64,000 nt of DNA from contig CAVXHK010000001.1 in NCBI GenBank assembly GCA_963761705.1, positions 259,140-323,139 of the forward strand, read 5' to 3'. Each line of letters starts with the position of its first letter. Within the stretch, counting starts at the first letter, position 1. Position numbers and translations under genes: made by a program. Source of the DNA: an uncultured Verrucomicrobiae bacterium. GTDB lineage: Bacteria > Verrucomicrobiota > Verrucomicrobiia > Chthoniobacterales > JAATET01. Below the pieces are notes generated by a model. It did no database searches and was not told the origin of the DNA. It saw only the letters and a program-made list of their open reading frames with translations. Of the stretch, positions 7,393 through 64,000 are shown piece after piece.

Positions 7393-8705
7393 TGTTTTGG
7401 ATCACCGTCGAAACCGGCGTCCGCGAGATTTTCTCGCATAAATTCCGGAGCTTCCTCTCGATGCTCGGCATCGTCCTTGGGGTCAGCAGCCTCATCGCAA
7501 CCCTGGCGCTCACGGACGGCATCGAGCGCAGCTCGCGCGAGTTCATGGCGAACATGGGCGGCATCGAGATGGTGAAGATCGTCGACAAGGACATCTCCGA
7601 CGAGAACCTCGATTTCTGGAATTTGTCACCCGGTCGCACCCTCCAGGACGCGGAAGCCATCCGCCGCTCAGCCCCACTCGTGTCCTACGTCTCGCCCGAG
7701 TTCGACGACGGCATGCCGGTCTCCGTCGGCGGGAACCGCATGCGAACGCGCGTGCGTGGTGTCTGGCCGGAATACGTCGAAGCCACCGACACGCAGCTCG
7801 CAGTCGGGCGCACGATCTCCGACCTCGACGTCGAGCGAGCGACCCGCACGGTCGCCATCGGAGCCTCGGTCGCCGCCCAGCTGTGGCCCTACCTCTCGCC
7901 CGAACAAACGCTCGGGAAACAAATTTTTCTCCAACAGACGCCATTCGAAGTGATCGGCGTCTTCCAGCTTTACCAGCGCGAAAGCGACAAGGAGGAGGAC
8001 AAGGATCAGAAAGCTCGGCGGGAAGCCCGCGGGGCCGGGAGGTCGGGGTGGGATCCCTTCCGCTGGAAGAACGAAGCCGTCGTCATCCCGATCACGACCA
8101 TGTTTCACGAATTTCAGTCCGGACTCTTTCCGGAGGATTCGATCGACACGGTGCGCATCCGCGACCTCACGTTTCGCGTGAGCGACTTAGAAAATTTCGA
8201 CGCGACCCTCGATCAGGTGCGCGCCGCCTTGAACAAAACCCACCGCGGCGTCGACGACTTCGGCTTCGATACGCGCGAGGATTGGTTCGACAACATGAAC
8301 GCCCAGATCGCCGCCACCCGCACGAGCGGTGGCCTCATCGCCGGCATCAGCCTGCTCGTCGGCGGCATCGGCATCGCGAACATCATGCTCGCCAGCATTT
8401 CCGAGCGCGTACGCGAGATCGGCATCCGCCGCGCGGTCGGCGCGCGCGGACGCGACATTTTTCTCCAGATCATCATCGAAAGCGTTTCGACCGCCCTCAT
8501 GGGCGGCGTCCTCGGCGTCTTCGTTGGCTTCGGCCTCATCGAGCTCATCGGCTACGTCGCCCCGAGCGACAGCCCGCCCATCGTTCAAGCCAGCAGCATC
8601 GTCCTCAGCGTCGCCTTCGCGGCCGTCGCCGGCGTCCTCTCCGGCATCTACCCCGCCATGCAAGCCTCGCGCCTCGATCCCATTCAGGCCCTCCGGTACG
8701 AGTAA
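7389..8705 (+). CDS. ABC transporter permease (MacB_PCD + FtsX domains)
   Basis: [34 protein letters not shown] at the N-terminus and FtsX-like C-terminus GISLLVGGIGIANIMLASISERVREIGIRRAVGA. ATG 7389 overlaps the upstream stop (ATGA). Confidence 0.88.
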   Translation: MMFWITVETGVREIFSHKFRSFLSMLGIVLGVSSLIATLALTDGIERSSREFMANMGGIEMVKIVDKDISDENLDFWNLSPGRTLQDAEAIRRSAPLVSYVSPEFDDGMPVSVGGNRMRTRVRGVWPEYVEATDTQLAVGRTISDLDVERATRTVAIGASVAAQLWPYLSPEQTLGKQIFLQQTPFEVIGVFQLYQRESDKEEDKDQKARREARGAGRSGWDPFRWKNEAVVIPITTMFHEFQSGLFPEDSIDTVRIRDLTFRVSDLENFDATLDQVRAALNKTHRGVDDFGFDTREDWFDNMNAQIAATRTSGGLIAGISLLVGGIGIANIMLASISERVREIGIRRAVGARGRDIFLQIIIESVSTALMGGVLGVFVGFGLIELIGYVAPSDSPPIVQASSIVLSVAFAAVAGVLSGIYPAMQASRLDPIQALRYE

Positions 8706-8758
8706 GCCCTCCGGCACGAGTCCGGGAATCCGCGGCATCGGCTTCCAGCTGATGGTGG

Positions 8759-10486
8759 CTACCGCATGAGGTAAACAACCTGCGTCCCACTCCGCGTCAC
8801 CGGCGGACTCATCTCGCCCAGTCGTTCTCGCCAAAAATCCGCCCGACCAGCCTCGGTGACCAACGCGACGCCAGCCCCCTCGCGCCAGATCTCCGCAAAC
8901 TGCTCGACCGTCACGTAACGATCACGCTCCGCCCCAAACTCCCGCGTCAGAAAATCGTCGTCCCCCTCCTGCCCGATGAGTAGCACCTCGTCGCCAACGT
9001 AGAAGAGCAGGCTGCTGCCCGTGTCGATTCCGCCGTCGTAGGCGATGCGGGTCCCGCGGTCCGCGAGTTCCCGGAGCGTTGGGGCCATCTCGGCGACGGA
9101 GAAATACGGCGCGACCCGCGCGTAACCCGCCATCGCGCCGAAGCTCAGACTTGCCGCCGCCAGGAACACGGCACGCAACGCAAACATTTGCCGGCCCCGT
9201 GCCAGCAGAACCGCCGCCAGCGCCAGGGCCACCACCGCGCAACCTAGACTTAATCGTCCCAACGTTGCGAGCGATCCCCAGACTTCCGCGTCCAACCCGA
9301 GCATCGTCGTCCACGCTGTCGACCGTTCCGCTACCGCCGCCGGGTCCGCCGCGCCACCCACGGTCGGCAAGACGAACAGTGCCCCAACGCAGACCAAACC
9401 AAAGGCAGCCACCCCAACCCACGAGATCCCCCGATCAACGAGCGCGGCCACCGCCAGAGCCAGCGCGGGCCAAGCCGCCAGCGCGTAATAATCCTGCCGC
9501 TGACCCGCCAACAGCACCGGCACGAAAACGACGACCGCCCAGACCCCCAAAAAAATCGCCCCACGCCTCCCGCCGAACACCGGGAGGTTCACCCGAGTGT
9601 CGACCTGTCGCGTTCGCACCGCGGCACGAATCCCTTCGGCGACACCAATGATCGACCACGGAAAAAGCCACGCGAGGTGCAGCAGAAGAAATTGTCCCCG
9701 CGGCACGTTCGTGTAGCTCGTCGCCGGAGCCGAGCTGCCCGCGACGTGGCCCCATTGCTCAACCCAGAAAAGGTTCGCCAACACACCCGGATAGCGGGTC
9801 TCGATGAACCAATACCAAGGCACGTTGATCGCCAGGAAAATGGTCGCACCCGTCGGCGACACCAGCCGCCGCGACCGCGCCCGCCATTCCGGCACCGCCA
9901 GCGCCGTTACCCCGACGATTGCCAGCGGGAAGAGCAATCCGTGCAGCCCCTTGGTGAAAACGGCCAACCCAGCCAGCACCCAGAAGCCGATCATCCAACG
10001 CCGATCCCGCGACTCGGCAAGCAACCCCCGCAGTCCGCAGTAAATCGCCCACGCGATGAACGCACAAAAGACCGGCTCCGGCATCACGATCCGCGCAAGC
10101 GTCGCCGTCCCCAGAAACGTCAGTAAGATCGCGCCCGCCACGAACCCCCGCCAGGCCCCGGCCATCAGCCCGCCAATCGCGAAGGTCGCCAGCACCCACG
10201 CCGTCACCCCCAGCGCGTTCGGCAGCCGGGCGGCAAATTCGCTCACCCCAAAGACGCGGAACGAACTCGCGATCATCCAATAGAGCAGCGGCGGCTTCAC
10301 GAGGCGCGGCACGCCGTTGTTCTGCGGGACGAGCCAGTCGCCGCCCCCGGCCATCACCCGGGCCGCGCCCGCGTATTGGCCGTCGGTCTCATTGTAAAGA
10401 GCGCCCCAACCCGCCGACTGGATCTGCAGCGCCGCGCAGAGCACGAGGAGAACGGCCGCGAACCCCGCGGTGGCGGACCATTTCAC
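8759..10486 (-). CDS. Glycosyltransferase family 39 (ArnT/PMT-like)
   Basis: NETDGQYAGAARVMAGGGDWLVPQNNGVPRLVKPPLLYWMIA plus many TM helices. GTG 10486 overlaps the stop of the upstream thioesterase (GTGA), which I prefer to the longer ORF start at 10579. Confidence 0.8.
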   Translation of the reverse strand: MKWSATAGFAAVLLVLCAALQIQSAGWGALYNETDGQYAGAARVMAGGGDWLVPQNNGVPRLVKPPLLYWMIASSFRVFGVSEFAARLPNALGVTAWVLATFAIGGLMAGAWRGFVAGAILLTFLGTATLARIVMPEPVFCAFIAWAIYCGLRGLLAESRDRRWMIGFWVLAGLAVFTKGLHGLLFPLAIVGVTALAVPEWRARSRRLVSPTGATIFLAINVPWYWFIETRYPGVLANLFWVEQWGHVAGSSAPATSYTNVPRGQFLLLHLAWLFPWSIIGVAEGIRAAVRTRQVDTRVNLPVFGGRRGAIFLGVWAVVVFVPVLLAGQRQDYYALAAWPALALAVAALVDRGISWVGVAAFGLVCVGALFVLPTVGGAADPAAVAERSTAWTTMLGLDAEVWGSLATLGRLSLGCAVVALALAAVLLARGRQMFALRAVFLAAASLSFGAMAGYARVAPYFSVAEMAPTLRELADRGTRIAYDGGIDTGSSLLFYVGDEVLLIGQEGDDDFLTREFGAERDRYVTVEQFAEIWREGAGVALVTEAGRADFWRERLGEMSPPVTRSGTQVVYLMR

Positions 10487-10908
10487 TTCGGATCGAAAGA
10501 AAAATGGTCGGGGAAGCCAGGCGGCAACCGGATCGGACGACCCTCGGGCATCCGCACCAGCGCAAGCGCCTGACGGCACGTCACGAGGAGCGCGTCGTCA
10601 CTCGGACGCACGACTTCGAACTCGCAGAAAAATCGCACTTTCGACGACTCCGCGATCCGCCCGTCGATCCGCAGTTTGTCACCAAGCAAGGCCGGACGCC
10701 GGTAGTCGATCTCGGTGCGCGTGACGACCGGGTGGACCTGCGTTCGCGCAATCTCCTCGAAGCTCATTCCCATCCGAATGGCGAGGTGCGTGCGCGTCGT
10801 CTCGATGAAGCGCAGGTAATTGATGTTGTTCACCACGCCCGCCGCGTCGGTGTCGAAATACATGACTTGAATCTCCGTGCTGATCCGCGTCTTCGGATTG
10901 TCGTCCAT
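10483..10908 (-). CDS. Acyl-CoA thioesterase, 4HBT/YbgC hot-dog family
   Basis: VMYFDTDAAGVVNNINYLRFIE...VVTRTEIDYRRPALLGDKL is typical of hot-dog fold thioesterases. Confidence 0.8.
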   Translation of the reverse strand: MDDNPKTRISTEIQVMYFDTDAAGVVNNINYLRFIETTRTHLAIRMGMSFEEIARTQVHPVVTRTEIDYRRPALLGDKLRIDGRIAESSKVRFFCEFEVVRPSDDALLVTCRQALALVRMPEGRPIRLPPGFPDHFSFDPK

Positions 10909-53085: not shown

Positions 53086-53179
53086 ATTGCTCGGAAGGTC
53101 CCTGGTCAAAAAGTTATTTGAGAATCGTTGGAGCGATTGATTTCGAACCGTCGATCCTCCTCCGCCGACCTTTGACGTC

Positions 53180-53315
53180 CCGACCTTCCGACCTTCCGAC
53201 CTTCCGACCTTCAGACCTTCAGACCTTCAGACCTTCAGACCTTCAGACCTTCAGACCTTCAGACCTTCAGACCTTCCGACCTTCCGACCTTCAGACCTTC
53301 CGACCTTCCGACCTT
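53180..53315. repeat. 17 tandem copies of the 8-bp unit C[C/A]GACCTT, ending 2 nt before the gmd ATG
   Basis: Counted by hand: 4x CCGACCTT, 8x CAGACCTT, 2x CCG, 1x CAG, 2x CCG. The array occupies exactly 53180..53315. Confidence 0.9.
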
Positions 53316-54370: not shown

Positions 54371-54558
54371 GTCGCAAGGTCCAAGGTCGAAGCGTCAGGT
54401 CAGAATCGCTGGTGCGATTGAAGCTGGGGAGCGCACGCGTCCCCGCGTGTGAGATGCGGCGTCCCGCCGCATCGCAGCAAGCACTTTGGTAGGGCAGGCC
54501 GTCCGCGCCCACCGCCATCCCTACGGCCCATCAAAAAAATCGCACCAGCGATTCAATC

Positions 54559-54667
54559 CCGACCACTCCGACCACTCCGACCACTCCGACCACTCCGACC
54601 ACTCCGACCACTCCGACCTTCCGACCTTCCGACCTTCCGACCTTCCGACCTTCCGACCTTCCGACCC
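54559..54667. repeat. Tandem array of 6x CCGACCACT (9 bp), then 6x CCGACCTT (8 bp) plus a partial unit, ending 11 nt before the exosortase ATG
   Basis: Counted by hand: 9-mers span 54559..54612, 8-mers span 54613..54660, and a partial CCGACCC follows. Confidence 0.9.
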
Positions 54668-54678
54668 GAGAACATCCC

Positions 54679-55599
54679 ATGCAACCCCCCGAAACCATGA
54701 CCCAACCAAAGAACCGCGCCCACACCGTCGCGTTTCCGGAGTGGGCACCCTTCGCGATCATCACGTTAATCTGGCTGCCGGCGCTGATGCGATTCAGCGT
54801 CGAGTGGTCGATCAATCCGCAGTATTACTACGGTTGGTCGGTTCCGCTGCTTTCGGCCTACCTGATCTACGATCGATGGTTGGCGCGGCCGACACCGGTC
54901 CCGCCCGAGCGGATACTGGTGCCGGCGATATTGATTATCCTGTGCGCCTTGCCGCAGTTGCCCCTGCGTCTGGTCGGCGAGGCGAACACGGATTGGCGGT
55001 TCGTTTCCTGGATCATGGGGCTGAACGCGTTGGCGATCGGCCTCGCGATCCTCTACATCCAAGGCGGTTGGCGGTGGCTGGGCTTCTTCGCTCTCCCAGT
55101 TCTTTTTCTGCTCACCGCCATCCCGTGGCCGTCCGGTGCCGAGAAGCTGCTGGTTCAGGGCCTGATGCGCGTCAACGCCGAGATCGCCGCCAACCTCGTC
55201 GGAATCGTCGGCATCCCGGCGGTCGCTCAGGGCAACGTGATCGAGGTGCCCACCGGGGTGTTGGGCGTCAACGAGGCCTGCAGCGGCATCCGGTCTCTTC
55301 AATCCACCCTCATGGCCGCCGCCTTCTTGGGATTGCTTTACCGACGGTCTTTGATCGGCCTCGGCTGCCTGATTTTCCTCGGTTCCCTCATCGCGTTCGT
55401 CTGCAACGTCATCCGCACAACGTTCCTCACCTACCAGGGAGCCACGAACGGCATCGAAGCCGTCGACAAGTGGCACGACTCAGCCGGATTCTTCATTCTC
55501 GGCGTCGTGCTCGTGTGTCTGTGGGGGATGAGCCAGTGGCTCGAGCGCTCGGAAAGGAAAGGATCTGAACGAAAGAGTGCTGAGGAAGCAAAGGTCTGA
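54679..55599 (+). CDS. Exosortase (Xrt family transpeptidase)
   Basis: Polytopic membrane protein with YYYGW near the N-terminus, the catalytic-Cys region VNEACSGIRSL, a later NVIRT, and His in DKWHDSAGF. Confidence 0.85.
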   Translation: MQPPETMTQPKNRAHTVAFPEWAPFAIITLIWLPALMRFSVEWSINPQYYYGWSVPLLSAYLIYDRWLARPTPVPPERILVPAILIILCALPQLPLRLVGEANTDWRFVSWIMGLNALAIGLAILYIQGGWRWLGFFALPVLFLLTAIPWPSGAEKLLVQGLMRVNAEIAANLVGIVGIPAVAQGNVIEVPTGVLGVNEACSGIRSLQSTLMAAAFLGLLYRRSLIGLGCLIFLGSLIAFVCNVIRTTFLTYQGATNGIEAVDKWHDSAGFFILGVVLVCLWGMSQWLERSERKGSERKSAEEAKV

Positions 55600-55712
55600 A
55601 GATGCATTGAAACCCACCCGGTGTGGCTGGAGTCTGGCTCGACCTGAATAGGATTCGTGTCATCCGGCGGACCGAAAGGGGGTGGCTTTCAATCCAATCG
55701 AAGCTAAATTGC

Positions 55713-56042
55713 ATGACAATGCTGCAACAACGCGACGAGCAGCGAAGGCAAACGCGCCTCGAGCTTTTCGACGAGACCCGGCGAACGCTTTTTGCCGAGC
55801 TTCGTGCCCGGCTCCCCCGCGGGACGGTGGTATGGATCTTTGGCTCGTTGGCTCGACGAGGAGTCTTCAACGCAGCTTCCGACGTCGACATCGCTCTGGA
55901 ATGTGAGCCAGCGGGGTCGAGTTGTTTTCGCCTGAGTTCCGAGTTGGACGAAGCTGTTGGCCGCCCCGTCGATGTGGTGCTGCTGAATGAAAGTCGGCTG
56001 GCCGCTCAGATCCAAAGCGCGGGAGAAAAATGGACGCTATAG
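55713..56042 (+). CDS. Nucleotidyltransferase (MNT-type antitoxin)
   Basis: VWIFGSLARRGVFNAASDVDIAL matches the GS-x-RG...DxD minimal nucleotidyltransferase motif. It overlaps the next gene by 13 nt. Confidence 0.75.
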   Translation: MTMLQQRDEQRRQTRLELFDETRRTLFAELRARLPRGTVVWIFGSLARRGVFNAASDVDIALECEPAGSSCFRLSSELDEAVGRPVDVVLLNESRLAAQIQSAGEKWTL

Positions 56043-56512
56043 GCTTGGCCACGCTGCATCGGGAAATGCAGGAGGATGTGCGCGTGATGCACGACGCGTT
56101 CGATCTTGCGACGGAGCGTTTTTCCCACGCTGGAGCGATGGGCTTGGAGTCGACGGCGCATCATTTATGCCGGTTCTACAACGCGTGCGAACAAATGGCT
56201 TTGCGAGTGGCGAAGGCATTCGAAAATCATATCGATGACGACCGAGGATGGCACACCGCTCTCCTCACGCGGATGAGCCTGGAGATCGGAGGGATTCGCC
56301 CGGCCCTGATCCCGTTGGATCTCAAACCCGATCTCCAAGAGTTGAAAGGGTTTCGACACGTTTTCGTTCATGCTTACGAGTTGCGGTTGGACGAAGAAAA
56401 GCTGCGATTGCTTATCCAATACGCCGGCCGGGTGAATGCGCGGTTGGATGAAATGATCAAAGTCTTCGCGGATCGTGCTTTCGAAGACGCAGATCCGGAT
56501 TCTACATCGTAG
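56030..56512 (+). CDS. HEPN-type (HepT-like) putative ribonuclease toxin
   Basis: Helical 160-aa protein with an R-x4-H motif in GFRHVFVHAY. Paired with the upstream MNT gene. Confidence 0.6.
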   Translation: MDAIGLATLHREMQEDVRVMHDAFDLATERFSHAGAMGLESTAHHLCRFYNACEQMALRVAKAFENHIDDDRGWHTALLTRMSLEIGGIRPALIPLDLKPDLQELKGFRHVFVHAYELRLDEEKLRLLIQYAGRVNARLDEMIKVFADRAFEDADPDSTS

Positions 56513-56674
56513 AAGTCGAGTGAACGGGTAGCTGGTAATACTAACGAGCAACCAGCAACTCACATCCGGGAAGCTCGCAGAGCTCCTCCCCAGCGCGGAT
56601 GAAATCATGAATTCCGCGATGTTCCTCGGGACAAACATCGCGACGATCAAGAGCGTCGTGAGGAGCTTTTGATT

Positions 56675-57413
56675 CTCGCGCAGAGGCGCAGAGGCGCAGA
56701 GATTGATACAAATGGCGATGGGTTTCACGCAAAGAGCGCTAAACCTACAGATCAGCTGTTTCCAAAAACAAAAACTCAATAACTATCACCTGTATCTCAG
56801 CCCTCAGCGCCTCCGCGCCTCTGCGGGAGAAAAGCATTCAATACAGGAACTCGCGCAACCGAAGGCTCGGGGGAGCCGAAGGTAGACGAAAAGCCCGAAG
56901 GGTGACCGAGCTGGGTTGCGAGGGAATCAAAGACGCAGAGGCGCAGAGATTGATACAAATGGCGATGGGTTTCACGCAAAGAGCGCTAAACCTACAGATC
57001 CGCTAATTCCAATAACTAGTAACTGTATCTCAGCCCTCCGCGTCTCTGCGCCTCTGCGGGCTAAAAGTATCAATACAGGGACTCGCGCAGAGACGCAGAG
57101 GCGCAGAGATTGATACAAATGCGGATCAGGAAGAGCTGAGAGAGAAGAACGGATGAAAGCCAAAAAAGCTAAATCTTAAAAAGAATCCCCTCCGCGTCTC
57201 TGCGCCTCTGCGGGCTAAAAGTATCAATACAGGGACTCGCGCAGAGGCGCAGAGATTCATACAAATGCGGATGAGAAAAGGCTGAAAGAGAAGAACAGGG
57301 GAAATTAAAGGAAGCTGAATCTTCTAAAGAATCCCCTCCGCGTCTCAGCGCCTCTGCGCGATTCATCGTATTATGCAACCAGAGGGTGAGGTTCGCGCGG
57401 AGGCGCGGGAAGA
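56675..57413. repeat. Mosaic palindromic-repeat zone 1 (hairpins plus B/C/D modules)
   Basis: An R arm lies at 56675..56701. Hairpins lie at 56801..56948 (with a D insert), 57034..57108 and 57187..57254, plus a degenerate one ending at 57413. Confidence 0.85.
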
Positions 57414-57469
57414 GTGTTAGTTGTTGGCTGGACGGTGGACATGACGAAACTACATGATATGTTTTTCGG

Positions 57470-57721
57470 ATGAGTGAATCGACATTGACCGAACGGGGAC
57501 AGGTATCCATCCCGGCGAAAATACGTAAATCCATGGGGTTGAAAGCTGGGCAACGGCTGCAATGGGAGCAGGTGTCCGCTCTGGAGTGCCGTATCTCCGC
57601 AATCGAGCCGCACGGTGACGGTCCACTTTCTGTATTGGGGTATGCCGCAAGGATTCGGGAGAATTCCGGACGTTCGACCGACGATTGGATGAAAGAGTTG
57701 CGAGCGGGCGAGATGCAATAG
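57470..57721 (+). CDS. AbrB/MazE/SpoVT-type antitoxin
   Basis: LTERGQVSIPAKIRKSMGLKAGQRLQWE is a swapped-hairpin DNA-binding motif. A PIN gene starts 4 nt downstream. Confidence 0.75.
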   Translation: MSESTLTERGQVSIPAKIRKSMGLKAGQRLQWEQVSALECRISAIEPHGDGPLSVLGYAARIRENSGRSTDDWMKELRAGEMQ

Positions 57722-57724
57722 CCC

Positions 57725-58147
57725 ATGTGGATTGTTGACACCTGCATTGTCCTCGATGTGTTCGAGGATGATCCCGAGTTTGGGAGAAAATCGGCGAACC
57801 TGCTTGAAAAACTATGTGGCGAAGGACTCTGCATCTGCCCCGTAACCATGGTCGAGCTGTCTCCAGCCTTTCAAGGCGATCTCTCGGAGCAGAAAAAATT
57901 CCTCTCGCTTGCCCGCATCTCGTTTTCCGCGAATTGGTCAGTTTTGGATACCGAAACGGCCCATCAGGCGTGGAGTGATTATGTCCACCTCCGCCGTCGC
58001 GAGGTCACACCAAGACGCCCGATCGCGGACATCCTGATCGGGGCATTCGCGTCAAATCGAAAAGGTTTGGTGACTCGGAACGCCAAAGACTTTCGACCTT
58101 GGTATCCCAAACTTGCCATCCAGGAGTCCGGCGCATCCTCCGGGTAG
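57725..58147 (+). CDS. PIN-domain toxin (VapC-like)
   Basis: MWIVDTCIVLDVF (first acidic residue), VTMVELS, IADILIGAFA, LVTRNAKDF. Confidence 0.8.
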   Translation: MWIVDTCIVLDVFEDDPEFGRKSANLLEKLCGEGLCICPVTMVELSPAFQGDLSEQKKFLSLARISFSANWSVLDTETAHQAWSDYVHLRRREVTPRRPIADILIGAFASNRKGLVTRNAKDFRPWYPKLAIQESGASSG

Positions 58148-58769
58148 CTAATAACCAGTAACCAATAACTGTATCTCAGCCCTCCGCGTCTCCGCGCCTC
58201 TGCGGGCTAAAAGTATCGATACAGGAACTCGCGCAGAGGCGCAGAGACGCAGAGATCGATACAAATGCGGATGATGAAGAGCTGAAAAGAAGAACGGATG
58301 ATATCCAAAGAAGCTAGATCTTAAAAAGAATCCCCTCCGCGCCTCTGCGCCTCTGCGGGCTAAAAGTATCAATACAGGAACTCGCGCAGAGGCGCAGAGA
58401 TTGATACAAATGCGGATGATGAAGAGTTGAAAAGAAGAACGGATGAAAATCAAAGAAGCTAAATCTTAAAAAGAATCCCCTCCGCGTCTCTGCGCCTCTG
58501 CGGGCTAAAAGTATCAATACAGGAACTCGCGCAACCGAAGGCTCGGGGGAGCCGAAGATAGACGAAAAGCCCGAAGGGTGACCGAGCTGGGTTGCGAGGG
58601 AATCAAAGACGCAGAGGCGCAGAGATTGATACAAATGAGGATGAGAAGGAGCTGAAACAGAAGAACGGATGAAATCCAAGGAAGCTAAATCTTAAAAAGA
58701 ATCCCCTCTGCGCCTCTGCGCCTCTGCGGGAGAAAAGTATCAATACAGGAACTCGCGCAGAGGCGCGAG
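58148..58769. repeat. Mosaic palindromic-repeat zone 2
   Basis: Includes the hairpin at 58332..58399, about four hairpin units in total, and D copy 58530..58596. Ends with a truncated R arm. Confidence 0.85.
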
Positions 58770-58832
58770 TCATTCCGAATCACGCAACTGATCCAAGTTG
58801 ACCGGGTTAAATGATCGCGTTACGATATCAAA

Positions 58833-59048
58833 ATGAAATCAATTCTCATCCGAAACGTCTCGCCCGAGACCGTTCAGCGGCTGAAGGCCAACGCCCGCGC
58901 TAATCATCGCTCGTTGCAAGGCGAGCTTCACGCATTGATTGAAGCGGGGATCGGCGTTCCCGACTCGTCGGAGCCCGAGTTCGAGCTGCGAACGGTGCGA
59001 ACCGATGGAACGCAGCGTTGGACCCGGGAAGAAATGTATGCGGATTGA
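58833..59048 (+). CDS. Ribbon-helix-helix (Arc/FitA-like) antitoxin
   Basis: MKSILIRNVSPETVQRLKANARANHRSLQGELHALIEAG is the typical RHH plasmid-stability N-terminus. It overlaps the downstream PIN gene by 11 nt. Confidence 0.7.
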   Translation: MKSILIRNVSPETVQRLKANARANHRSLQGELHALIEAGIGVPDSSEPEFELRTVRTDGTQRWTREEMYAD

Positions 59049-59511
59049 GCCGGGATCTCGGGTGAGTCTCGACACCAATGTCCTGCTAGACGCAACTGAC
59101 GAGGGTCGCGCTCGACACGGCGTTGCCATGCGACTCTTGGTCGAATCCCAGAGCCGTGGAATCGGCCTCTTCGTCGCAGCGCAAGTGATCCGCGAATATC
59201 TCGTAGTCGCCACCCGACCTCTTACGGCGAACGGTCTCGATCTTTCCATTGACGATGCGCTTTTCAACGTCCGGCAGTTGACGCGCCAAACCACCCTCCT
59301 CTGGGAGACCGTCGGGGCCTCCCAACTCTTTCTCGACTGGGCCCGGGAGCTTGGCGTTACGGGCACGAAACTTCACGACCTCCAGATCCTTGCCACGACT
59401 CACAGCGCTGGCATCCCGTGCCTCGTGACCTCGAACATCGACGATTTTCCGTCCAGAGTCGGCCCGCTCGTCTTCCCTCTCGGCGAATTGGACTGGGGGA
59501 ATGGGGACTAA
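59038..59511 (+). CDS. PIN-domain toxin (VapC-like)
   Basis: VSLDTNVLLDATDEG, AAQVIREYLVVATR, HDLQILATTHSAGIPCLVTSNIDDF. Start taken at MRIEPG. Confidence 0.75.
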   Translation: MRIEPGSRVSLDTNVLLDATDEGRARHGVAMRLLVESQSRGIGLFVAAQVIREYLVVATRPLTANGLDLSIDDALFNVRQLTRQTTLLWETVGASQLFLDWARELGVTGTKLHDLQILATTHSAGIPCLVTSNIDDFPSRVGPLVFPLGELDWGNGD

Positions 59512-59629
59512 GGATCCATTAGGTTCAGTCGGGTCAGGGCCCGTGCCCGTCTCCCGCCTCGAGGACAGGTTTCAACAATTACCCCGACGAGTCCTTGGCC
59601 CGTCAGTTCGATCCTGCCGTTTTCTAATT

Positions 59630-60263
59630 CCTCTCTGCGTCTCAACGCCTCTGCGGGAAAAAAGTATCGATACAGGAACTCGCGCAACCGAAGGCTCGGG
59701 GGAGCCGAAGATAGACGAAAAGCCCGAAGGGTGACCGAGCTGGGTTGCGAGGGAATCAAAGGCGCAGAGGCGCAGAGAATGAAGATGCTGGTGGGTTTCA
59801 CCCAAAGAGCGCTAAACCTACAGATCAGCTAATTCCAATAACTATCAACTGTATCTCAGGCCTCCGCGCCTCCGCGCCTCCGCGGGCTAAAAGTATCAAT
59901 ACAGGGACTCGCGCTGAGACGCAGAGGCGCAGAGAATGAAGATGGCTATGGGTTTCACGCGGTTCCTGCACGAAGAGCTACTGATTAGATATTTCCAACA
60001 ACAAAAACTCAATAACTATCAACTGTATCTCAGCCCTCCGCGTCTCTGCGCCTCCGCGGGAGAAAAGTATCGATACAGGGACTCGCGCAGAGGCGCAGAG
60101 GCGCAGAGAATGAAGATGGCGATGGGTTTCACGCAAAGAGCGCTAAATTTACAGATCAGCTAATTCCAATAATTAGTAACTGTATCTCAGCCCTCCGCGC
60201 CTCTGCGCCTCTGCGGGAGAAAAGTATCAGTATCAATCCAGGAACTCGCGCAGAGACGCAGAG
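59630..60263. repeat. Mosaic palindromic-repeat zone 3
   Basis: Four hairpin units, three C modules, and D copy 59683..59749. Confidence 0.85.
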
Positions 60264-60285
60264 AGTGGTGAAGGGTCCTTGAAAA

Positions 60286-60669
60286 ATGACGGAGAATGAG
60301 ATCGGAACGAAGGTTCTGGAGGTATCGATTGAAATCCACAGGGAGCTGGGTCCCGGGCTGCTTGAAACGGTTTACGAAGTGGTTCTGGCAAAGGAACTGT
60401 CTTTACGTGGCCTGATTGTGCAGCGCCAGGTGCCGGTGCCAATCCTGTGTCGCGGAACTCGGTTTGATGAAGGTTTTCGCGCTGATCTGATTATTAACCG
60501 GACCGTCCTTCTGGAACTCAAATCTGTCGAAAAGGTAATCCCTGCCCACAAGAAGCAAGTGCAGACCTACCTGCGACTCACTGGTATCAAGCTGGGTTAT
60601 CTTTTGAACTTTGGTGAGTCTGTTCTGAAAAGTGGGATCACTCGCTGCGTCAATGGCCTCGAATCATGA
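60286..60669 (+). CDS. GxxExxY family protein (PD-(D/E)XK nuclease-like fold)
   Basis: GLLETVYE, RADLIINRTVLLELK, GYLLNFG. An R arm ends 22 nt upstream and an L arm starts 3 nt after the stop. Confidence 0.8.
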   Translation: MTENEIGTKVLEVSIEIHRELGPGLLETVYEVVLAKELSLRGLIVQRQVPVPILCRGTRFDEGFRADLIINRTVLLELKSVEKVIPAHKKQVQTYLRLTGIKLGYLLNFGESVLKSGITRCVNGLES

Positions 60670-60672
60670 ATT

Positions 60673-61115
60673 CCCTCCGCGCCTCTGCGCCTCTGCGGGC
60701 TAAAAGTATCAATCCAGGAACTCGCGCAGAGGCGCAGAGATTGAAGATGCGATGGGTTTCAAGCGGCCCTCGAGCGAAGAGCGGCAGGTCTACAGATCAA
60801 CTGCTCCCAATACCCAATAACTATCACCTGGATCTCAGCCCTCAGCGCCTCCGCGCCTCTGCGGGCTAAAAGCATTCAATACAGAAACTCGCGCAACCGA
60901 AGGCTCGGGGGAGCCGAAGATAGACGAAAAGCCCGAAGGGTGACCGAGCTGGGTTGCGAGGGAATCAAAGACGCAGAGACGCAGAGATTCATACAAATGC
61001 GGATGAGAAAAGGCTGAAAGAGAAGAACAGGGGAAATTAAAGGAAGCTGAATTTTGTAAAGAATCCCCTCAGCGTCTCAGCGCCTCTGCGGGAGAAAAGT
61101 ATCAATACAGGGACT
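60673..61115. repeat. Mosaic palindromic-repeat zone 4
   Basis: Hairpin at 60673..60739, a C module, a hairpin with D copy 60892..60958, a B module, and a final L arm plus linker. Confidence 0.85.
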
Positions 61116-61160
61116 CGTTTAAGAATCGCGCAAGGTAGAGTCTTGCGCTAACATCCAGCA

Positions 61161-61478
61161 ATGACAACGATAGATATAGCCGCGAAGATCGCCCACCGAC
61201 TGATTGGCGGGCTGCCGGCTGAGCAAGTCTGGCTGTTTGGCTCGCAAGCCAGGGGCGATGCCTCGCCTGATAGTGATTTGGATATTCTCGCGGTCGTTGG
61301 CGAAGCAAAGCCGTCCCGGATACGGCAGACCGTTGAGGCCTATTCCCTCGTGGCAGACATCCATGCTCCCAAAGACATCATCATTCTGACTCGCGACCAG
61401 TGGACGCGACAGAAAGGCGTCGTAAACACGATTCCCTACCTTGCTCTCAAAGAGGGCATCCCGCTCCACGAGGGGTGA
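61161..61478 (+). CDS. Nucleotidyltransferase (MNT-type antitoxin)
   Basis: VWLFGSQARGDASPDSDLDILAV is the GSxxRG...DxD motif. Confidence 0.8.
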   Translation: MTTIDIAAKIAHRLIGGLPAEQVWLFGSQARGDASPDSDLDILAVVGEAKPSRIRQTVEAYSLVADIHAPKDIIILTRDQWTRQKGVVNTIPYLALKEGIPLHEG

Positions 61479-61484
61479 CTCAGG

Positions 61485-61913
61485 ATGACCCAAGAATACT
61501 TGCAAGTGGTTGAAGCTTGGTTGGCGAAGGCCGGGTCGGATCTTGCATCAGCCAAATTGTTGATCGAAAACGACGATCCGCATCTCGATACCGGCAGTTA
61601 CCATTGCCAGCAAGCCGCAGAAAAGGTCCTCAAAGGCTGGCTGACTGCTAACAAAGTCGAATTTCGCAAAACCCACGACATCTCTGAGCTTCTCGGCCAA
61701 TGCATTCAAATCGAGGTCAGCTTCCGAGCGTTCGAAGATGCCGGACGTTTCCTCCTGCCATTCGCCACCCAATTCCGCTATCCCGGAGACGTCTTCGAAC
61801 CGTCGCGGGATGAGGCTTTGGAAGCGTTCGAGTCAGCAGCCTCGATTGACTCCTTCGCTCCCGCTCATCTCGCCCTGCGGGCTACGCCGCAGAGCCGCCG
61901 TAGTCTGCCCTGA
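61485..61913 (+). CDS. HEPN domain protein (toxin partner of MNT)
   Basis: AWLAKAGSDLASAKLL...YHCQQAAEKVLKGWL...FRKTHDISELL...QFRYPG is a classical HEPN layout. It starts 6 nt after the MNT gene. Confidence 0.78.
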   Translation: MTQEYLQVVEAWLAKAGSDLASAKLLIENDDPHLDTGSYHCQQAAEKVLKGWLTANKVEFRKTHDISELLGQCIQIEVSFRAFEDAGRFLLPFATQFRYPGDVFEPSRDEALEAFESAASIDSFAPAHLALRATPQSRRSLP

Positions 61914-62035
61914 GGCGTCCCACGCCTCCGGTGCTCTCGACGCGGTTTGGTTTGACTTGAATGCGAAATTTCCGGGCCAGCTTGAATAAGGAAGCCCTTT
62001 GGACCCGCCTCGAATTTTAGACAGCTGACCGTTGC

Positions 62036-63081
62036 CCTCCGAGCCTCTGCGGGAAAAACACATCAATACAGGAACTTGCGCAACCGAAGGCTCGGGGGAG
62101 CCGAAGATAGACGAAAAGCCCGAAGGGTGACCGAGCTGGGTTGCTAGGGAATCAAAGGCGCAGAGACGCAGAGAATGATATAAATGCGGATGAGGAAGAG
62201 CTGAAAAGAAAGAACGGATAAGATCCAAGGAATCTAATCTTCAAAAGGATTCCCTCCGCGCCTCCGCACCTCTGCGGGCTAAAAGTATCGATACAGGAAC
62301 TCGCGCAGAGGCGCAGAGGCGCAGAGATTGATACAAATGCGGATCAGGAAGAGCTGAGAGAGAAGAACGGATGAAAGCCAAAGAAGCCAAATCTTCAAAA
62401 AAATCCCCTCCGCGCCTCTGCGCCTCTGCGGGCTAAAAGTATCAATACAGGGACTCGCGCAGAGGCGCAGAGGCGCAGAGATTGATACAAATGCGGATCA
62501 GGAAGAGCTGAGAGAGAAGAACGGATGAAAGCCAAAGAAGCCAAATCTTCAAAAAAATCCCCTCCGCGCCTCTGCGCCTCCGCGGGATAAAGTATCAATA
62601 CAGGAACTCGCGCAGAGACGCAGAGGCGCAGGAAGCTCGAGAAGGGAATTCGTAATACCAATACAGGGACTCGCGCAACCGAAGGCTCGGGGGAGCCGAA
62701 GATAGACGAAAAGCCCGAAGGGTGACCGAGCTGGGTTGCGAGGGAATCAAAGGCGCAGAGGCGCAGAGAATGAAGATGGCGGCGGATTCATCACGCAAAG
62801 AGCGCTAAACCTACAGATTAGCTGCTTCTAATAACTAATAACAAATAACTATCAACTGTATCTCATTCCCTCCGCGCCTCTGCGCCTCTGCGGGATAAAG
62901 TATCAATACAGGAACTCGCGCAACCGAAGGCTCGGGGAAGCCGAAGATAGACGAAAAGCCCGAAGGGTGACCGAGCTGGGTTGCGAGGGAATCAAAGGCG
63001 CAAAGGCGCAGAGAAGGAAAACCCGCTACCCAGTACCCGTATCTCATCGCCATTCCCTCTGCGCCTCCGCGCCTCTGCGGG
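62036..63081. repeat. Mosaic palindromic-repeat zone 5 (longest)
   Basis: About seven hairpin units and three D copies (62079..62145, 62674..62740, 62919..62985). Ends with a lone L arm at 63055..63081. Confidence 0.85.
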
Positions 63082-63240
63082 ATAATCACTCAGAACCTCA
63101 GAACGCACCTCCCCTCCCATGAAAAAAACAGTAATCATCGTTGCCTCCCGCTCGCCCGAGCGTGTCGCCCTACGGGCTGTCGCTCCACTCCAGGCTACCC
63201 CGACCGTCCCCATCGGTCCGGTGTTCTCTTCCACAAAAGC

Positions 63241-63930
63241 ATGAAAAAGTCACTTATCGTTCTTTTTTCCTCCGTCATCGGTTGGTTCGTCGTGTCCGAG
63301 GCGGCCACCGAGGCTTGGTACCGTTGGCACGAGATGCGGGCCGAGACGTCGGCGGAGTGGCAGGTCACCTGGCCGGACGAACCGGAATCGGATTGGGCCG
63401 TGCAGGATTTCACAGAGTTTCCAACCTCCGATCAAGTGCAGGAAGTTCTGCGCTACGACGAAATGCGCGGTGCCCGCTGGGTTGATCCCGCGTCCCGGGT
63501 CGCGTGGAACGTCAACTTCATCGAATGGGAGCCGGATAAGGATCTCAACGGCATCAATGCCGTTCACAACCCCACGATTTGTCTGCCGAGCGCTGGGATG
63601 CAGCTCGTCGAGACCCTGGGAGAACGGACTCTTGAGGTCGGTGGCCAGACGATCTCCTTCCAATGCTTCATCTTCGAGACCCAGGGTCGCCAACTCTACG
63701 TCTTCTCCGCTGCGAATCAGGAACTGAAATTGAAACCTGCAGACATGGAAGGTGCCGACTTCGGGCGAGCGAATCGCCTGGATACCGTGAATTCCGCCAA
63801 CCGCCAGGGTCCGCGCCAGGTCATGCACATCTACCTCATGGGGCCGCGCAGCTTCGACGAGGCGCTCGCGGAGCTGAAATCCGGACTCCAGAAGCTCGTG
63901 GAGGCGCAGCCCGCCCGGAAGAGCGCGTAG
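63241..63930 (+). CDS. EpsI family exosortase-associated protein
   Basis: N-terminal TM segment SLIVLFSSVIGWFVV and the hallmark segment AVHNPTICLPSAGMQLVE, followed by QLYVFS. 229 aa. Confidence 0.75.
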   Translation: MKKSLIVLFSSVIGWFVVSEAATEAWYRWHEMRAETSAEWQVTWPDEPESDWAVQDFTEFPTSDQVQEVLRYDEMRGARWVDPASRVAWNVNFIEWEPDKDLNGINAVHNPTICLPSAGMQLVETLGERTLEVGGQTISFQCFIFETQGRQLYVFSAANQELKLKPADMEGADFGRANRLDTVNSANRQGPRQVMHIYLMGPRSFDEALAELKSGLQKLVEAQPARKSA

Positions 63931-64000
63931 CGAGTGAAGGGTAGCGGGTCGCGCGTGGCGAGTGGGCGGTGGTTTCAGTGGGTGACAATAGGCGCAGAGG

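Follow-up and report, generated by a model that had tools for sequence, protein, structure and literature searches.

A variable array of toxin-antitoxin-type cassettes, separated by hairpin repeats, between two partner genes of an exosortase operon in a soil bacterium

Several described systems are relevant to arrays of small exchangeable genes. Sedentary chromosomal integrons sit at a fixed chromosomal site downstream of attI/Pc and hold many short, co-oriented cassettes, largely toxin-antitoxin genes, whose content and order differ between close relatives and which are separated by imperfect palindromes that each travel with the upstream cassette. Clusters of such attC sites whose integrase lies elsewhere or has been lost (CALINs) are common (PMC4889954). 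Horizontal-transfer hotspots, by contrast, show rapid gene turnover between two conserved genes; many lack mobile elements and show recombination in the flanking core genes (Oliveira et al. 2017, PMC5635113). REP/BIME palindromes (with RAYT transposases) and bacterial MITEs are GC-rich intergenic units, sometimes in tandem clusters, that could stabilise or terminate transcripts; REPs are dispersed genome-wide in hundreds of copies and BIMEs alternate in orientation. Mobile insertion cassettes (MICs) are passenger genes between IS-type inverted repeats that are moved in trans, and intervening sequences of 23S rRNA can carry an IVP/S23p ORF inside an RNase III stem.

Here, we analysed a window of 64,000 nt from an uncultured soil Verrucomicrobiae bacterium (GCA_963761705.1, contig CAVXHK010000001.1, positions 259,140 to 323,139). 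A preliminary description had noted that an exosortase gene (xrt) and its EpsI partner are split by 7,641 nt (55600-63240) holding nine small co-oriented genes and five zones of one repeat family with about 20 hairpin units, and this observation is confirmed. The interval is organised as follows:

54679-55599 (+): exosortase of the xrt/EpsH family, without subtype assignment; the conserved left anchor
55713-56512 (+): cassette 1, an MntA-like nucleotidyltransferase (MNT; the ORF could start at 55623) and a HepT-like_2 toxin (56030-56512)
56513-56672 (+): spacer with a possible gene remnant
56673-57364 (+): repeat zone 1, a lone right arm, then type-2 linkers, one hairpin with insert B, two plain hairpins with type-1 linkers, and a variant hairpin leading into cassette 2
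57436-58147 (+): cassette 2, a promoter-like site (57436-57463), an AbrB/MazE-type antitoxin (57470-57721) and a PIN toxin (57725-58147)
58148-58767 (+): repeat zone 2 (repeats from 58176), tandem 145-nt units of hairpin plus type-1 linker, one carrying insert B
58798-59511 (+): cassette 3, a promoter-like site (58798-58826), a FitA-like RHH antitoxin (58833-59048) and a PIN toxin (about 59047-59511; start uncertain)
59627-60265 (+): repeat zone 3, four hairpins (one with insert B) joined by type-2 linkers
60286-60669 (+): cassette 4, a GxxExxY protein (PD-(D/E)XK_3), bracketed by complementary arms at 60201-60219 and 60721-60739
60669-61114 (+): repeat zone 4
61161-61913 (+): cassette 5, an MNT (61161-61478) and a HEPN protein (61485-61913)
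62036-63085 (+): repeat zone 5, three tandem 154-nt units, three B-type modules and a last lone left arm (63057-63081)
63241-63930 (+): EpsI-family protein, the right anchor, very divergent between relatives
63990-64000 (+): an 11-nt match to the right arm at the window edge

The gene calls rest on profile searches. The exosortase matches Pfam Exosortase_EpsH (PF09721, E=4e-43), contains the motif NEACSGIRS and scores 56 bits against a cut-off of 23 for the NCBIfam exo_archaeo signature, although no subtype cut-off is reached. EpsI contains HNPTICLPSAG, yet its Pfam hit to PF11984/DUF3485 is sub-threshold (E=0.0045); its assignment is supported by 33% identity (E=2e-40) to the PF11984-annotated protein that directly follows xrt in the relative L004 (L-numbers denote the comparison loci), and an HMM built from three such proteins finds EpsI next to or fused with xrt in many loci. 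Its closest homologues (75-92% identity) lie in sister arrays. All nine genes in between are intact and were confirmed by Pfam/NCBIfam as NTP_transf_2/MntA-like plus HepT-like_2, MazE/AbrB plus PIN, FitA-like RHH plus PIN, GxxExxY/PDDEXK_3 (TIGR04256, E=2e-37; PF13366, E=1e-37), and NTP_transf_2 (E=6e-9) plus HEPN (E=3e-21). The MNT of cassette 5 additionally matches the PADLOC candidate family PDC-S09.

The stems of the repeats are built from 8-nt units (CTCTGCGC/GCGCAGAG) around a conserved 25-nt loop, with 20 left-arm copies in the five zones. Allowing up to two mismatches, the 16-mer GCGCAGAGGCGCAGAG has 58 hits, all within 56678-63080 and none elsewhere in the 64 kb, whereas shuffles give 0.11. 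Contrary to the initial impression, however, the repeats are not one simple hairpin but a mosaic of modules (left arm, loop core, right arm, a 95-nt nested insert 'B' and two linker types) that sit in tandem units of 145-154 nt. The ORF-less units are amplified in tandem at 85-92% matches. The fragment at 63990-64000 (AGGCGCAGAGG), from which the preliminary description had concluded that the family continues beyond epsI, is present but too short to prove this, even though hairpins and small cassettes do continue among the downstream polysaccharide genes in relatives. The exact loop variant was found in only four species genomes, each time in or next to this polysaccharide locus and always in the xrt direction.

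Comparison of the xrt|epsI junction between related uncultured Verrucomicrobiae, which had been proposed beforehand as a test, revealed a highly variable site. The junction is empty in L004 (0.18 kb) and almost empty in L036 (0.5 kb), but holds different, shuffled cassette sets in five other genomes, spanning 3.0 kb in L002, 5.7 kb in L003 and 14.0 kb in L001/L035, compared to 7.6 kb here; L061 holds at least 14 kb of array, although its xrt was not seen. Internal duplications occur as well. Besides the gene types seen here, arrays in relatives include four-helix-bundle IVP (PF05635), DUF6036, DUF433 and UPF0175/DUF3368 genes. Across five arrays, 65 of 71 called genes are co-oriented with xrt, and the repeat modules lie between cassettes, with every loop core, insert B and linker found lying in the xrt orientation. 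An xrt-adjacent array with the same AbrB/PIN cassette is also present in an independent JGI sample (L060).

The shared cassettes are at least ten times younger at synonymous sites than the flanking genes, with dS values of 0.02-0.17 against 0.7-1.6 for gmd and xrt, and their composition is foreign (GC3 of 0.56-0.70 against 0.76-0.87 for host genes). The proteins of cassette 1, for instance, are 97% identical to the first cassette of L001 (dS 0.06 against 0.7-0.86 for gmd/xrt). Cassette 2 recurs in L003, L006, L061 and L060 at 84-90% nucleotide identity, with a PIN dS of 0.11 against 1.0-1.6 for the flanks; in L003 and L006 it is the first cassette after xrt, whereas here it is the second. Cassette 3 is 94.6% identical at the nucleotide level to L008 5062-5856 (dS 0.02-0.17), and a 65%-identical copy of the GxxExxY gene lies at a different intergenic site in L003. 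The block recently exchanged between the window and L001 starts inside the 3' end of xrt (~55500-55524), thus comprising the last ~80-100 nt of the gene, and ends at a right arm; the spacer behind cassette 1 differs from L001 by an in-frame 33-nt indel.

The earlier interpretation of the interval as a cassette landing pad that expanded inside an operon, integron-like in form but with another repeat type and no integrase, is supported by these comparative data, albeit with three qualifications. The premise that xrt and EpsI are always adjacent or fused does not hold in this clade, since in JGI relatives 0.7 to more than 10 kb of ordinary sugar-nucleotide genes often lie between them. Cassette edges are not as sharp as in an integron, given that only 44% of shared-block ends abut multi-copy repeats, against 22% of random positions. 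Finally, at least two cassettes have promoter-like sites of their own.

With regard to the closest described systems, the array shares with integrons and CALINs the fixed site, the uniform orientation, the toxin-antitoxin content, the palindromes that travel with the upstream cassette, the reshuffling between relatives and the existence of both empty and very large versions. Yet, there is no IntI nearby, several repeat units plus nested inserts lie between each pair of cassettes, and the array is located inside a host operon, between two functional partner genes. Like the hotspots without mobile elements, it combines rapid turnover between conserved genes and evidence for a crossover inside a flanking gene with the absence of recognisable mobility genes, but it is punctuated by a locus-specific, directional repeat family, its genes are strongly co-oriented and single-cassette units move independently. 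Like REP/BIME elements and MITEs, the units are GC-rich intergenic palindromes, sometimes in tandem clusters, and could stabilise or terminate transcripts. In contrast to REP/BIME elements, the family is confined to one locus and one orientation and alternates with exchangeable genes, and no RAYT gene was seen. Some cassettes resemble MICs in being small passenger genes bracketed by inverted arms without a transposase of their own; however, no target-site duplication and no matching IS were identified, many cassettes lack bracketing arms and the arms are tandem 8-mers. As in 23S rRNA intervening sequences, IVP genes in sister arrays sit in sense orientation inside a transcribed unit, tightly bracketed by 25-31-nt inverted repeats, and the 16-24-bp stems are in the size range of RNase III substrates. 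Here, however, the host is an mRNA operon, any processing would be purely hypothetical, and most cassettes are toxin-antitoxin pairs.

How the cassettes are exchanged remains unresolved. Our leading, though tentative, explanation, which we consider slightly less likely than not, is that exchange occurs mainly by RecA-type homologous or homeologous recombination, with the 80-150-nt repeat modules and the conserved flanking genes acting as portable homology both for incoming DNA and for unequal crossing-over within the array. In this view, recombination between two direct modules would excise a circle carrying one cassette and one hairpin, which could re-enter at any other module in the same orientation. 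This is in line with the breakpoint inside xrt, the tandem amplification of ORF-less units and a weak homogenisation within genomes (hairpin cores are 0.908 identical within and 0.892 between genomes, p about 0.05; the GGGCT loop variant is specific to this genome). It also fits the lack of a nearby recombinase: none was found among 20 mid-sized window ORFs tested or, apart from ordinary IS copies, in the gene calls of the relatives, a search that did not extend to the rest of the source genome. On the other hand, homeologous recombination across 80-nt repeats of about 90% identity is inefficient, and a module grammar conserved between lineages and samples (a periodic arm ending in CTGCGG, then TTMAAAGTATCRA...), together with a loop core at least as conserved as the stem, is more what one expects of a recognition site than of passive homology. 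The restriction of the exact loop variant to these loci, the precise bracketing of some cassettes by inverted arms and the repeated occurrence of cassette 5' ends after ...GCGC with GAT(T/C)(C/A)A likewise argue against purely homologous exchange. A dedicated structure- or site-specific system is not excluded and is a possible, if somewhat less favoured, alternative. Here, the modules would be recombination sites or terminal inverted repeats of non-autonomous elements (attC-like or MIC/MITE-like), moved in trans by an unidentified enzyme encoded elsewhere, such as a Y1/HUH single-strand transposase, a tyrosine recombinase or a DDE transposase, and the ORF-less hairpin units would be empty elements. 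Besides the locus-restricted, directional modules and their conserved grammar in an independent sample with a diverged sequence, this is supported by the AbrB/PIN cassette, whose contexts in five genomes diverge right after the loop core ACTCGCGC, with or without a right arm. AbrB/PIN, GxxExxY, two IVP genes and one MNT/HepT pair are bracketed by inverted arms at p<1/300 (the arms around GxxExxY score 33, above the maximum of 29 in 300 shuffles). The same 18-nt arm occurs in 23 IMG/VR contigs, in some of which it brackets small ORFs and in one of which a 90-nt palindrome is flanked by TTAA on both sides, and folding is slightly more stable on the minus strand, through G.U in place of C.A. Yet, no candidate enzyme was seen in the 64 kb or in the flanks of the relatives, inspection of the aligned junctions in the window revealed no target-site duplications, most cassettes tested lack significant bracketing repeats, fewer than half of the shared-block ends abut repeats, one breakpoint lies in xrt, and arm unit numbers are unequal and variable.

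It appears unlikely that the site is an ordinary transfer hotspot in which toxin-antitoxin genes accumulate by flank-mediated recombination while the hairpins are REP/MITE-like secondary colonisers, or RNA stabiliser or processing elements, with no part in cassette movement. Many hotspots lack mobile elements and show recombination in the flanking core genes (PMC5635113), the xrt breakpoint and the tandem amplification are compatible with it, and L060 carries the AbrB/PIN cassette without the GCGCAGAG hairpins. However, L060 has a diverged homologue of the same module between its cassettes, the 5' half of the module co-travels with cassettes, block ends are twofold enriched at repeats, and, unlike REP elements, the exact loop variant was not found outside the polysaccharide locus in the four species genomes that carry it, nor the arm motif in the other 56 kb of the window. 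A degenerate integron of the CALIN type is very unlikely despite the formal resemblance: the attC core pattern RYYYAAC-N40-130-GTTRRRY has 0 matches on either strand, the 7-mers after the right arm are ATTGATA or AATGAAG rather than GTTRRRY, and the stems are near-perfect 16-24-bp repeats of an 8-mer, unlike the R''/L''-L'/R' layout of attC. A search of Rfam matched no family and returned only generic hairpin (miRNA precursor) models below threshold, and no tyrosine recombinase was found among the ORFs tested. An assembly artefact, i.e. collapsed repeats or a chimera of co-assembled relatives, is equally improbable. Although repeats invite misassembly and most comparison loci come from a single metagenome (ERZ25039505/MFD03250), shared cassettes are 84-97% rather than 100% identical, repeat units differ from one another, the same architecture recurs on seven contigs and in an independent JGI sample, and the repeat zones are under 1.1 kb and lie on contigs of 0.1-2 Mb.

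Taken as a whole, the locus is best described as a hypervariable, co-oriented array of selfish or defence-type cassettes, namely type II and type VII toxin-antitoxin pairs and a GxxExxY nuclease, at a fixed site within an exosortase/polysaccharide locus of a lineage of uncultured soil Verrucomicrobiae. The analysis demonstrates that cassettes are gained, lost, duplicated and reordered, that they pass between co-resident species far more recently than those species diverged, and that they are separated by directional palindromic modules whose 5' half (left arm plus conserved loop core) travels with the upstream cassette, whereas the mechanism of exchange and the reasons for co-orientation are inferred. 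As for the latter, the directionality of the modules and selection for read-through from xrt to epsI may both contribute. None of 14 hairpins is followed by a T-run on the sense strand, while 7 of 20 are preceded by an A-run, and about a third of the hairpins would act as terminators for antisense transcription. The toxin-antitoxin pairs, in turn, probably stabilise the array by addiction.

The two anchor genes and the interval between them can be set out as follows:

54679-55599, the exosortase gene (xrt), which matches Pfam Exosortase_EpsH (PF09721) at E=4e-43 over the whole model and carries NEACSGIRS.
The 7,641-nt interval, nine + strand genes, namely an MNT with a HepT-like_2 toxin, a MazE/AbrB antitoxin with a PIN toxin, a FitA-like RHH antitoxin with a PIN toxin, a GxxExxY/PDDEXK_3 protein, and an MNT with a HEPN protein.
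63241-63930, the EpsI gene, which carries HNPTICLPSAG.

The exosortase call is solid, although no NCBIfam subtype cut-off is reached, so the subtype is unassigned. EpsI, by contrast, is weak in Pfam, where its hit to DUF3485/PF11984 (E=0.0045) lies below the cut-off, yet homology supports the call: the protein is 33% identical (E=2e-40) to the PF11984-annotated protein that directly follows xrt in the relative L004, an HMM built from three such proteins finds EpsI beside, or fused to, xrt in many loci, and the protein is homologous to the C-terminal halves of fused Xrt-EpsI proteins. With this reservation on the Pfam score, the two genes fulfil what is expected of an EpsH-family 8-TM protein with the Cys-containing motif and a PF11984 EpsI partner. 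The nine genes between them were confirmed by profile searches, and adjacent small antitoxin and toxin genes of matching type II and type VII families are present with intact catalytic motifs in their translations, i.e. GS..DxD in both MNTs, RxxxxH in HepT and N-terminal acidic residues in both PINs. A PADLOC search returned hits for the two MNT proteins only, to candidate family PDC-S09. The preliminary description of an exosortase gene and its EpsI partner split by a co-oriented array of small genes and palindromic repeats was confirmed.

Five intergenic zones carry about 20 units of one repeat family. The core unit is a hairpin with a left arm of (CTCYGCGY)2-3, a right arm of (GCGCAGAG)2-3 and, between them, a conserved 25-nt loop, GGGMKAAAAGTATCRATACAGGRACTCGCGC, and its predicted folding energy as RNA is -35 to -52 kcal/mol. 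Two linker types join the hairpins into tandem 145-154-nt units. The arm 16-mer occurs 58 times within 56678-63080 and nowhere else in the 64 kb, whereas shuffles give 0.11. In terms of composition, the interval is 52-58% G+C against 60-69% around it, and the cassette genes have a GC3 of 0.56-0.70 against 0.76-0.87 for host genes. Seven copies in the window carry a 95-nt nested palindrome (‘B’) inserted right after CTCGCGC; although this insert folds into a nested stem, 16 copies across genomes show no covariation, and we therefore treat it as a nested palindrome rather than as an RNA gene. Similarly, the loop box GTATCAAT could pair with ATTGATAC after the right arm, but a compensatory change was seen in only one of six variant copies, and this pairing was dropped. 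The linkers contain conserved mini-ORFs (e.g. at 58424-58470 and 60108-60165), of which type 1 encodes MKAKEAKS and a stop behind a purine-rich tract and type 2 encodes MKMAMGFTQRALNLQIS and a stop, but the frames are not kept in all copies, so these are probably not coding. A further short open frame lies after the HepT stop at 56540-56672 (...LTSGKLAELLPSADEIMNSAMFLGTN...SF and a stop); it differs from L001, a sister array in a related genome, by an in-frame 33-nt indel and may be a gene remnant or a small protein.

Repeats are also found next to host genes. Long 8/9-nt microsatellites lie directly upstream of host start codons at 53165-53315 and 54559-54667: (GACCTTCA/GACCTTCC) x about 17 ends 2 nt before the gmd ATG, and (CCGACCACT) x 6 followed by (TCCGACCT) x 7 ends 12 nt before the xrt ATG. 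Both are C-rich and G-poor on the mRNA strand, and repeats of the same type appear in ORF translations of the relatives L006 and L007; they could act as phase-variable spacers, Rho-loading sites or anti-Shine-Dalgarno tracts. The host gene gmd is itself bracketed by inverted copies of the 8-mer repeat at 53266-53304 and 54371-54405 (score 24 against a shuffle maximum of 18), meaning that periodic-arm inverted repeats around genes are not limited to the cassettes.

To ask how widely the repeat is distributed, an exact loop pattern was searched in one genome for each of 185,579 species. It hit only five stretches in four ‘uncultured Verrucomicrobiae’ MAGs from one sample (MFD03250), all in or next to the xrt polysaccharide locus: L006 and L009 contain xrt itself, L007 and L010 lie on the same contigs as xrt loci, and L008 lies in the large array L061. 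While an exact-match search would miss diverged copies, the exact loop variant is thus confined to one clade and one locus and, given that no arm match occurs in the other 56 kb of the window, is not a genome-wide REP. In every locus, the loop, insert B and the linkers point the same way as xrt.

Exact-protein look-ups of the window's xrt, EpsI and GxxExxY found nothing, and context was instead obtained from homologues of xrt, EpsI and the PIN toxin. These show that the same junction is occupied very differently among relatives.

The xrt-epsI junction in the window and its relatives (locus; identity of its xrt protein to the window's; xrt-epsI interval)
L004; 71%; 0.18 kb (empty)
L036; 80%; 512 nt, containing a decayed IVP fragment
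L002; 75%; 3.0 kb
L003; 74%; 5.7 kb
window; reference; 7.6 kb
L001/L035 (one contig); 86%; 14.0 kb, about 20 genes, including an IS and a second truncated EpsI copy
L061; xrt not seen; at least 14 kb, 27 small genes (26 co-oriented), with an internal duplication of RHH/PIN + DUF6036

Across five arrays, 65 of 71 called genes are co-oriented with xrt. Contig L060, which comes from an unrelated JGI sample (3300037326), shows the xrt 3′ end followed by such an array, arguing against a sample-specific artefact. Apparent frameshifts occur in xrt of L009 (4861-5764) and in the AbrB antitoxin of L003 (11379-11628), which could be real pseudogenes or long-read indel errors. The right anchor is itself variable: compared with L004, L002 and L036, EpsI diverges far faster than its partner, being 23-33% identical to the EpsI of L002 and L004, whose xrt is 68-75% identical, and yet 75-92% identical to EpsI in some sister arrays, which suggests allele swapping or diversifying selection. 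In L035, one array holds two EpsI-like genes (8322-8858 and 10001-10546) that are 79% and 92% identical to the window's EpsI, both shorter than it and separated by a UPF0175/DUF3368 cassette.

Individual cassettes recur in different genomes at different positions. MNT/HepT_2 is the first cassette both here and in L001, whereas AbrB/PIN is second here but first in L003 and L006, and also occurs in L061 and L060. RHH/PIN occurs in L008/L061, a DUF6036 + 95-aa pair sits at three different positions in L001, L006 and L008 at 97% identity, and L003 and L008 share three cassettes in a different order. Beyond the arrays proper, single GxxExxY, IVP and DUF6036 genes sit co-oriented in other intergenic gaps of the downstream polysaccharide operon (L002 16631-17023; L003 18168-18545 and 19705-20124; L004 14853-15245 and 18954-19762; L036 3247-3618), and the L003 IVP is bracketed by GTTGTTGG.../...CCAACAAC arms 4 nt before its start and 8 nt after its stop. 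Synonymous divergence settles the timing of these movements.

Synonymous divergence (dS) of flanking genes and shared cassettes (comparison; flanking genes gmd and xrt; shared cassette)
window and L003; 1.0-1.6; 0.11 (PIN)
window and L001; 0.7-0.86; 0.06 (MNT/HepT)
window and L008; not measured; 0.02-0.17 (RHH/PIN)

Cassettes have therefore passed between co-resident species long after those species diverged.

The ends of the exchanged blocks are informative as well. The recent block shared by the window and L001 (at least 95% identity) begins inside the last ~80-100 nt of xrt and ends at the first right arm, which is the signature of a homologous crossover in a flanking gene. The AbrB/PIN block shared with L003 runs from a hairpin arm (57329) to the CTCGCGC that closes the loop of the next hairpin (58234). 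When AbrB/PIN is aligned in five genomes, the 3′ flank always carries a (CAACNA)n tract, a left arm and the loop core, and contexts diverge only after ACTCGCGC, with or without a right arm, so that each inter-cassette hairpin is a hybrid whose 5′ half belongs to the upstream cassette. Overall, however, 44% of shared-block ends abut multi-copy repeats against 22% of random array positions, a twofold enrichment that is far from the precision of an integron. Hairpin cores are slightly more alike within a genome than between genomes (0.908 against 0.892, p about 0.05), with the GGGCT loop variant being specific to this genome, and ORF-less units are tandemly amplified; both points suggest local duplication or gene conversion.

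How, then, does the locus compare with described systems? Like integrons, it holds co-oriented cassettes whose content and order vary between relatives, and empty sites exist. Using the definitions of integron and CALIN in PMC4889954, however, a regex search for the cores of attC sites (57-141-nt imperfect palindromes with R′′ RYYYAAC and R′ GTTRRRY) gave 0 matches on either strand, against a shuffle mean of 0.8, and the 7-mers after the stems are ATTGATA or AATGAAG. An E-value scan of 55000-64000 against Rfam returned only generic hairpin (miRNA precursor) hits below threshold. Twenty mid-sized ORFs of the window returned only housekeeping or unrelated Pfam families, or none, and no recombinase or transposase, including no RAYT (IS200-like Y1) gene, and precomputed Pfam calls around six relatives' arrays show no PF00589. 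An IntI tyrosine recombinase adjacent to the array is required for a complete integron, though not for a CALIN. The gene calls of the relatives contain only ordinary IS copies. Such elements are inserted within sister arrays at L001 12746-14125 and L007 2286-2918, one being a DDE_Tnp_1/DUF772 element and one an ORF that looks like an integrase-core (rve) protein by eye; they are probably passengers, although a role as helpers is not excluded. With regard to MITEs and mobile insertion cassettes, bracketing by terminal inverted repeats is significant for AbrB/PIN, GxxExxY, two IVP genes and one MNT/HepT pair but not for 15 of the 20 cassettes tested, and the idea that every cassette sits in a long-range hairpin is therefore not general. 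No target-site duplication was seen by eye at the window junctions in the alignments. The locus does fit the definition of a horizontal-transfer hotspot (Oliveira et al. 2017, PMC5635113), as gene turnover is concentrated between conserved flanking genes and recombination is seen in the flanks. Literature searches on GxxExxY, exosortases with toxin-antitoxin genes, integron-like palindromic arrays, and HEPN/MNT in polysaccharide loci found no description of this architecture.

Some observations hint at a wider family. Contig L060 lacks the GCGCAGAG hairpins, but between its cassettes it has a diverged relative with the same grammar, (CCATCCGCGT)n CCATCTGCGG TTCAAATGTATCGAAG..., together with a homologue of the loop core. 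Sister arrays also use an ‘ICV’ module, ATCTGTGTAATCTGCGGTTAAAAC..., and IVP genes there are tightly bracketed by 25-31-nt inverted repeats. In viral contigs, the loop pattern is absent, yet the 18-nt arm GCCTCTGCGCCTCTGCGG occurs in 23 viral-classified IMG/VR contigs from many samples (L037-L059; e.g. L047 1753-2036, L056 432-1084 and L050 25-95). In some of these it forms hairpins or brackets small ORFs with no Pfam family, and in L050/L051 a 90-nt palindrome is flanked by TTAA on both sides.

The preliminary description had read the locus as a cassette landing pad that expanded inside an operon, formally reminiscent of a chromosomal integron array but with a different repeat type and no integrase in the window, and in substance the comparative data support this reading. 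Its premise, that xrt and EpsI are adjacent or fused in described systems, needs a caveat. In JGI metagenome relatives (xrt 51-63% identical), the two genes are adjacent in six loci but lie 0.7 to more than 10 kb apart in about a dozen others, where the gaps hold ordinary sugar-nucleotide genes such as UDP-glucose dehydrogenase, epimerases, SDRs, cytidylyltransferases and glycosyltransferases, with an occasional IVP; more distant homologues are fused Xrt-EpsI proteins. Separation in itself is thus not exceptional in this clade, and what is unusual is the cassette array.

While the variable occupancy of the junction and the recent passage of cassettes between species are shown by the comparisons themselves, the engine of exchange is inferred, as are the toxicity and neutralisation expected of the toxin-antitoxin pairs and the expression-related features of the array. 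Regarding the latter, promoter-like sites sit immediately upstream of the AbrB and RHH antitoxin genes. None of 14 hairpins is followed by a T-run on the sense strand, whereas seven of 20 are preceded by an A-run, so they would look like terminators to antisense transcripts. This fits selection for read-through from xrt to epsI and would also give a selective reason for co-orientation, beyond the directionality of the repeats.

Homologous recombination through the repeat modules and flanking genes appears to be the most likely engine, although we hold this view only tentatively. A dedicated hairpin-specific enzyme remains a serious rival that is kept alive by the hints of a wider family, if somewhat less favoured. 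That the repeats are mere bystanders is unlikely, and both a CALIN and an assembly artefact are very unlikely. In a more far-reaching version of the enzyme-based view, which is doubtful but compatible with the evidence, the arrays are a previously undescribed, integrase-independent cassette-capture platform. Small cargo genes (toxin-antitoxin pairs, GxxExxY, IVP) would be carried by palindromic elements whose arms are tandem 7-10-nt units ending in ...CTGCGG and whose core is TTMAAAGTATCRA, and a hairpin-specific enzyme encoded elsewhere would move them and target them to transcribed intergenic sites of polysaccharide operons. The stems might also act as RNase III-type processing sites that insulate host and cargo messages, as in rRNA intervening sequences. 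Since the same grammar appears in a diverged form in an independent sample and the arm occurs in IMG/VR contigs, the family could be widespread.

Integrons are the only well-understood bacterial platform that stockpiles and shuffles single-gene cassettes at a fixed site. We regard the present locus not as an integron but as a cassette array and transfer hotspot that gives the same outcome with different parts: a site that ranges from empty to at least 14 kb, single cassettes that cross species boundaries, and directional palindromes between cassettes, without attC sites or a nearby integrase and inside a working operon. If the repeats only provide portable homology, the locus shows how ordinary recombination can build an integron-like array, and it would also show how selfish toxin-antitoxin genes can sit inside an operon without breaking it. 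If, on the other hand, a dedicated enzyme exists, this is a new mobile-element class, which could explain the long-noted but unexplained scattering of GxxExxY, IVP and HEPN/MNT genes through polysaccharide loci.
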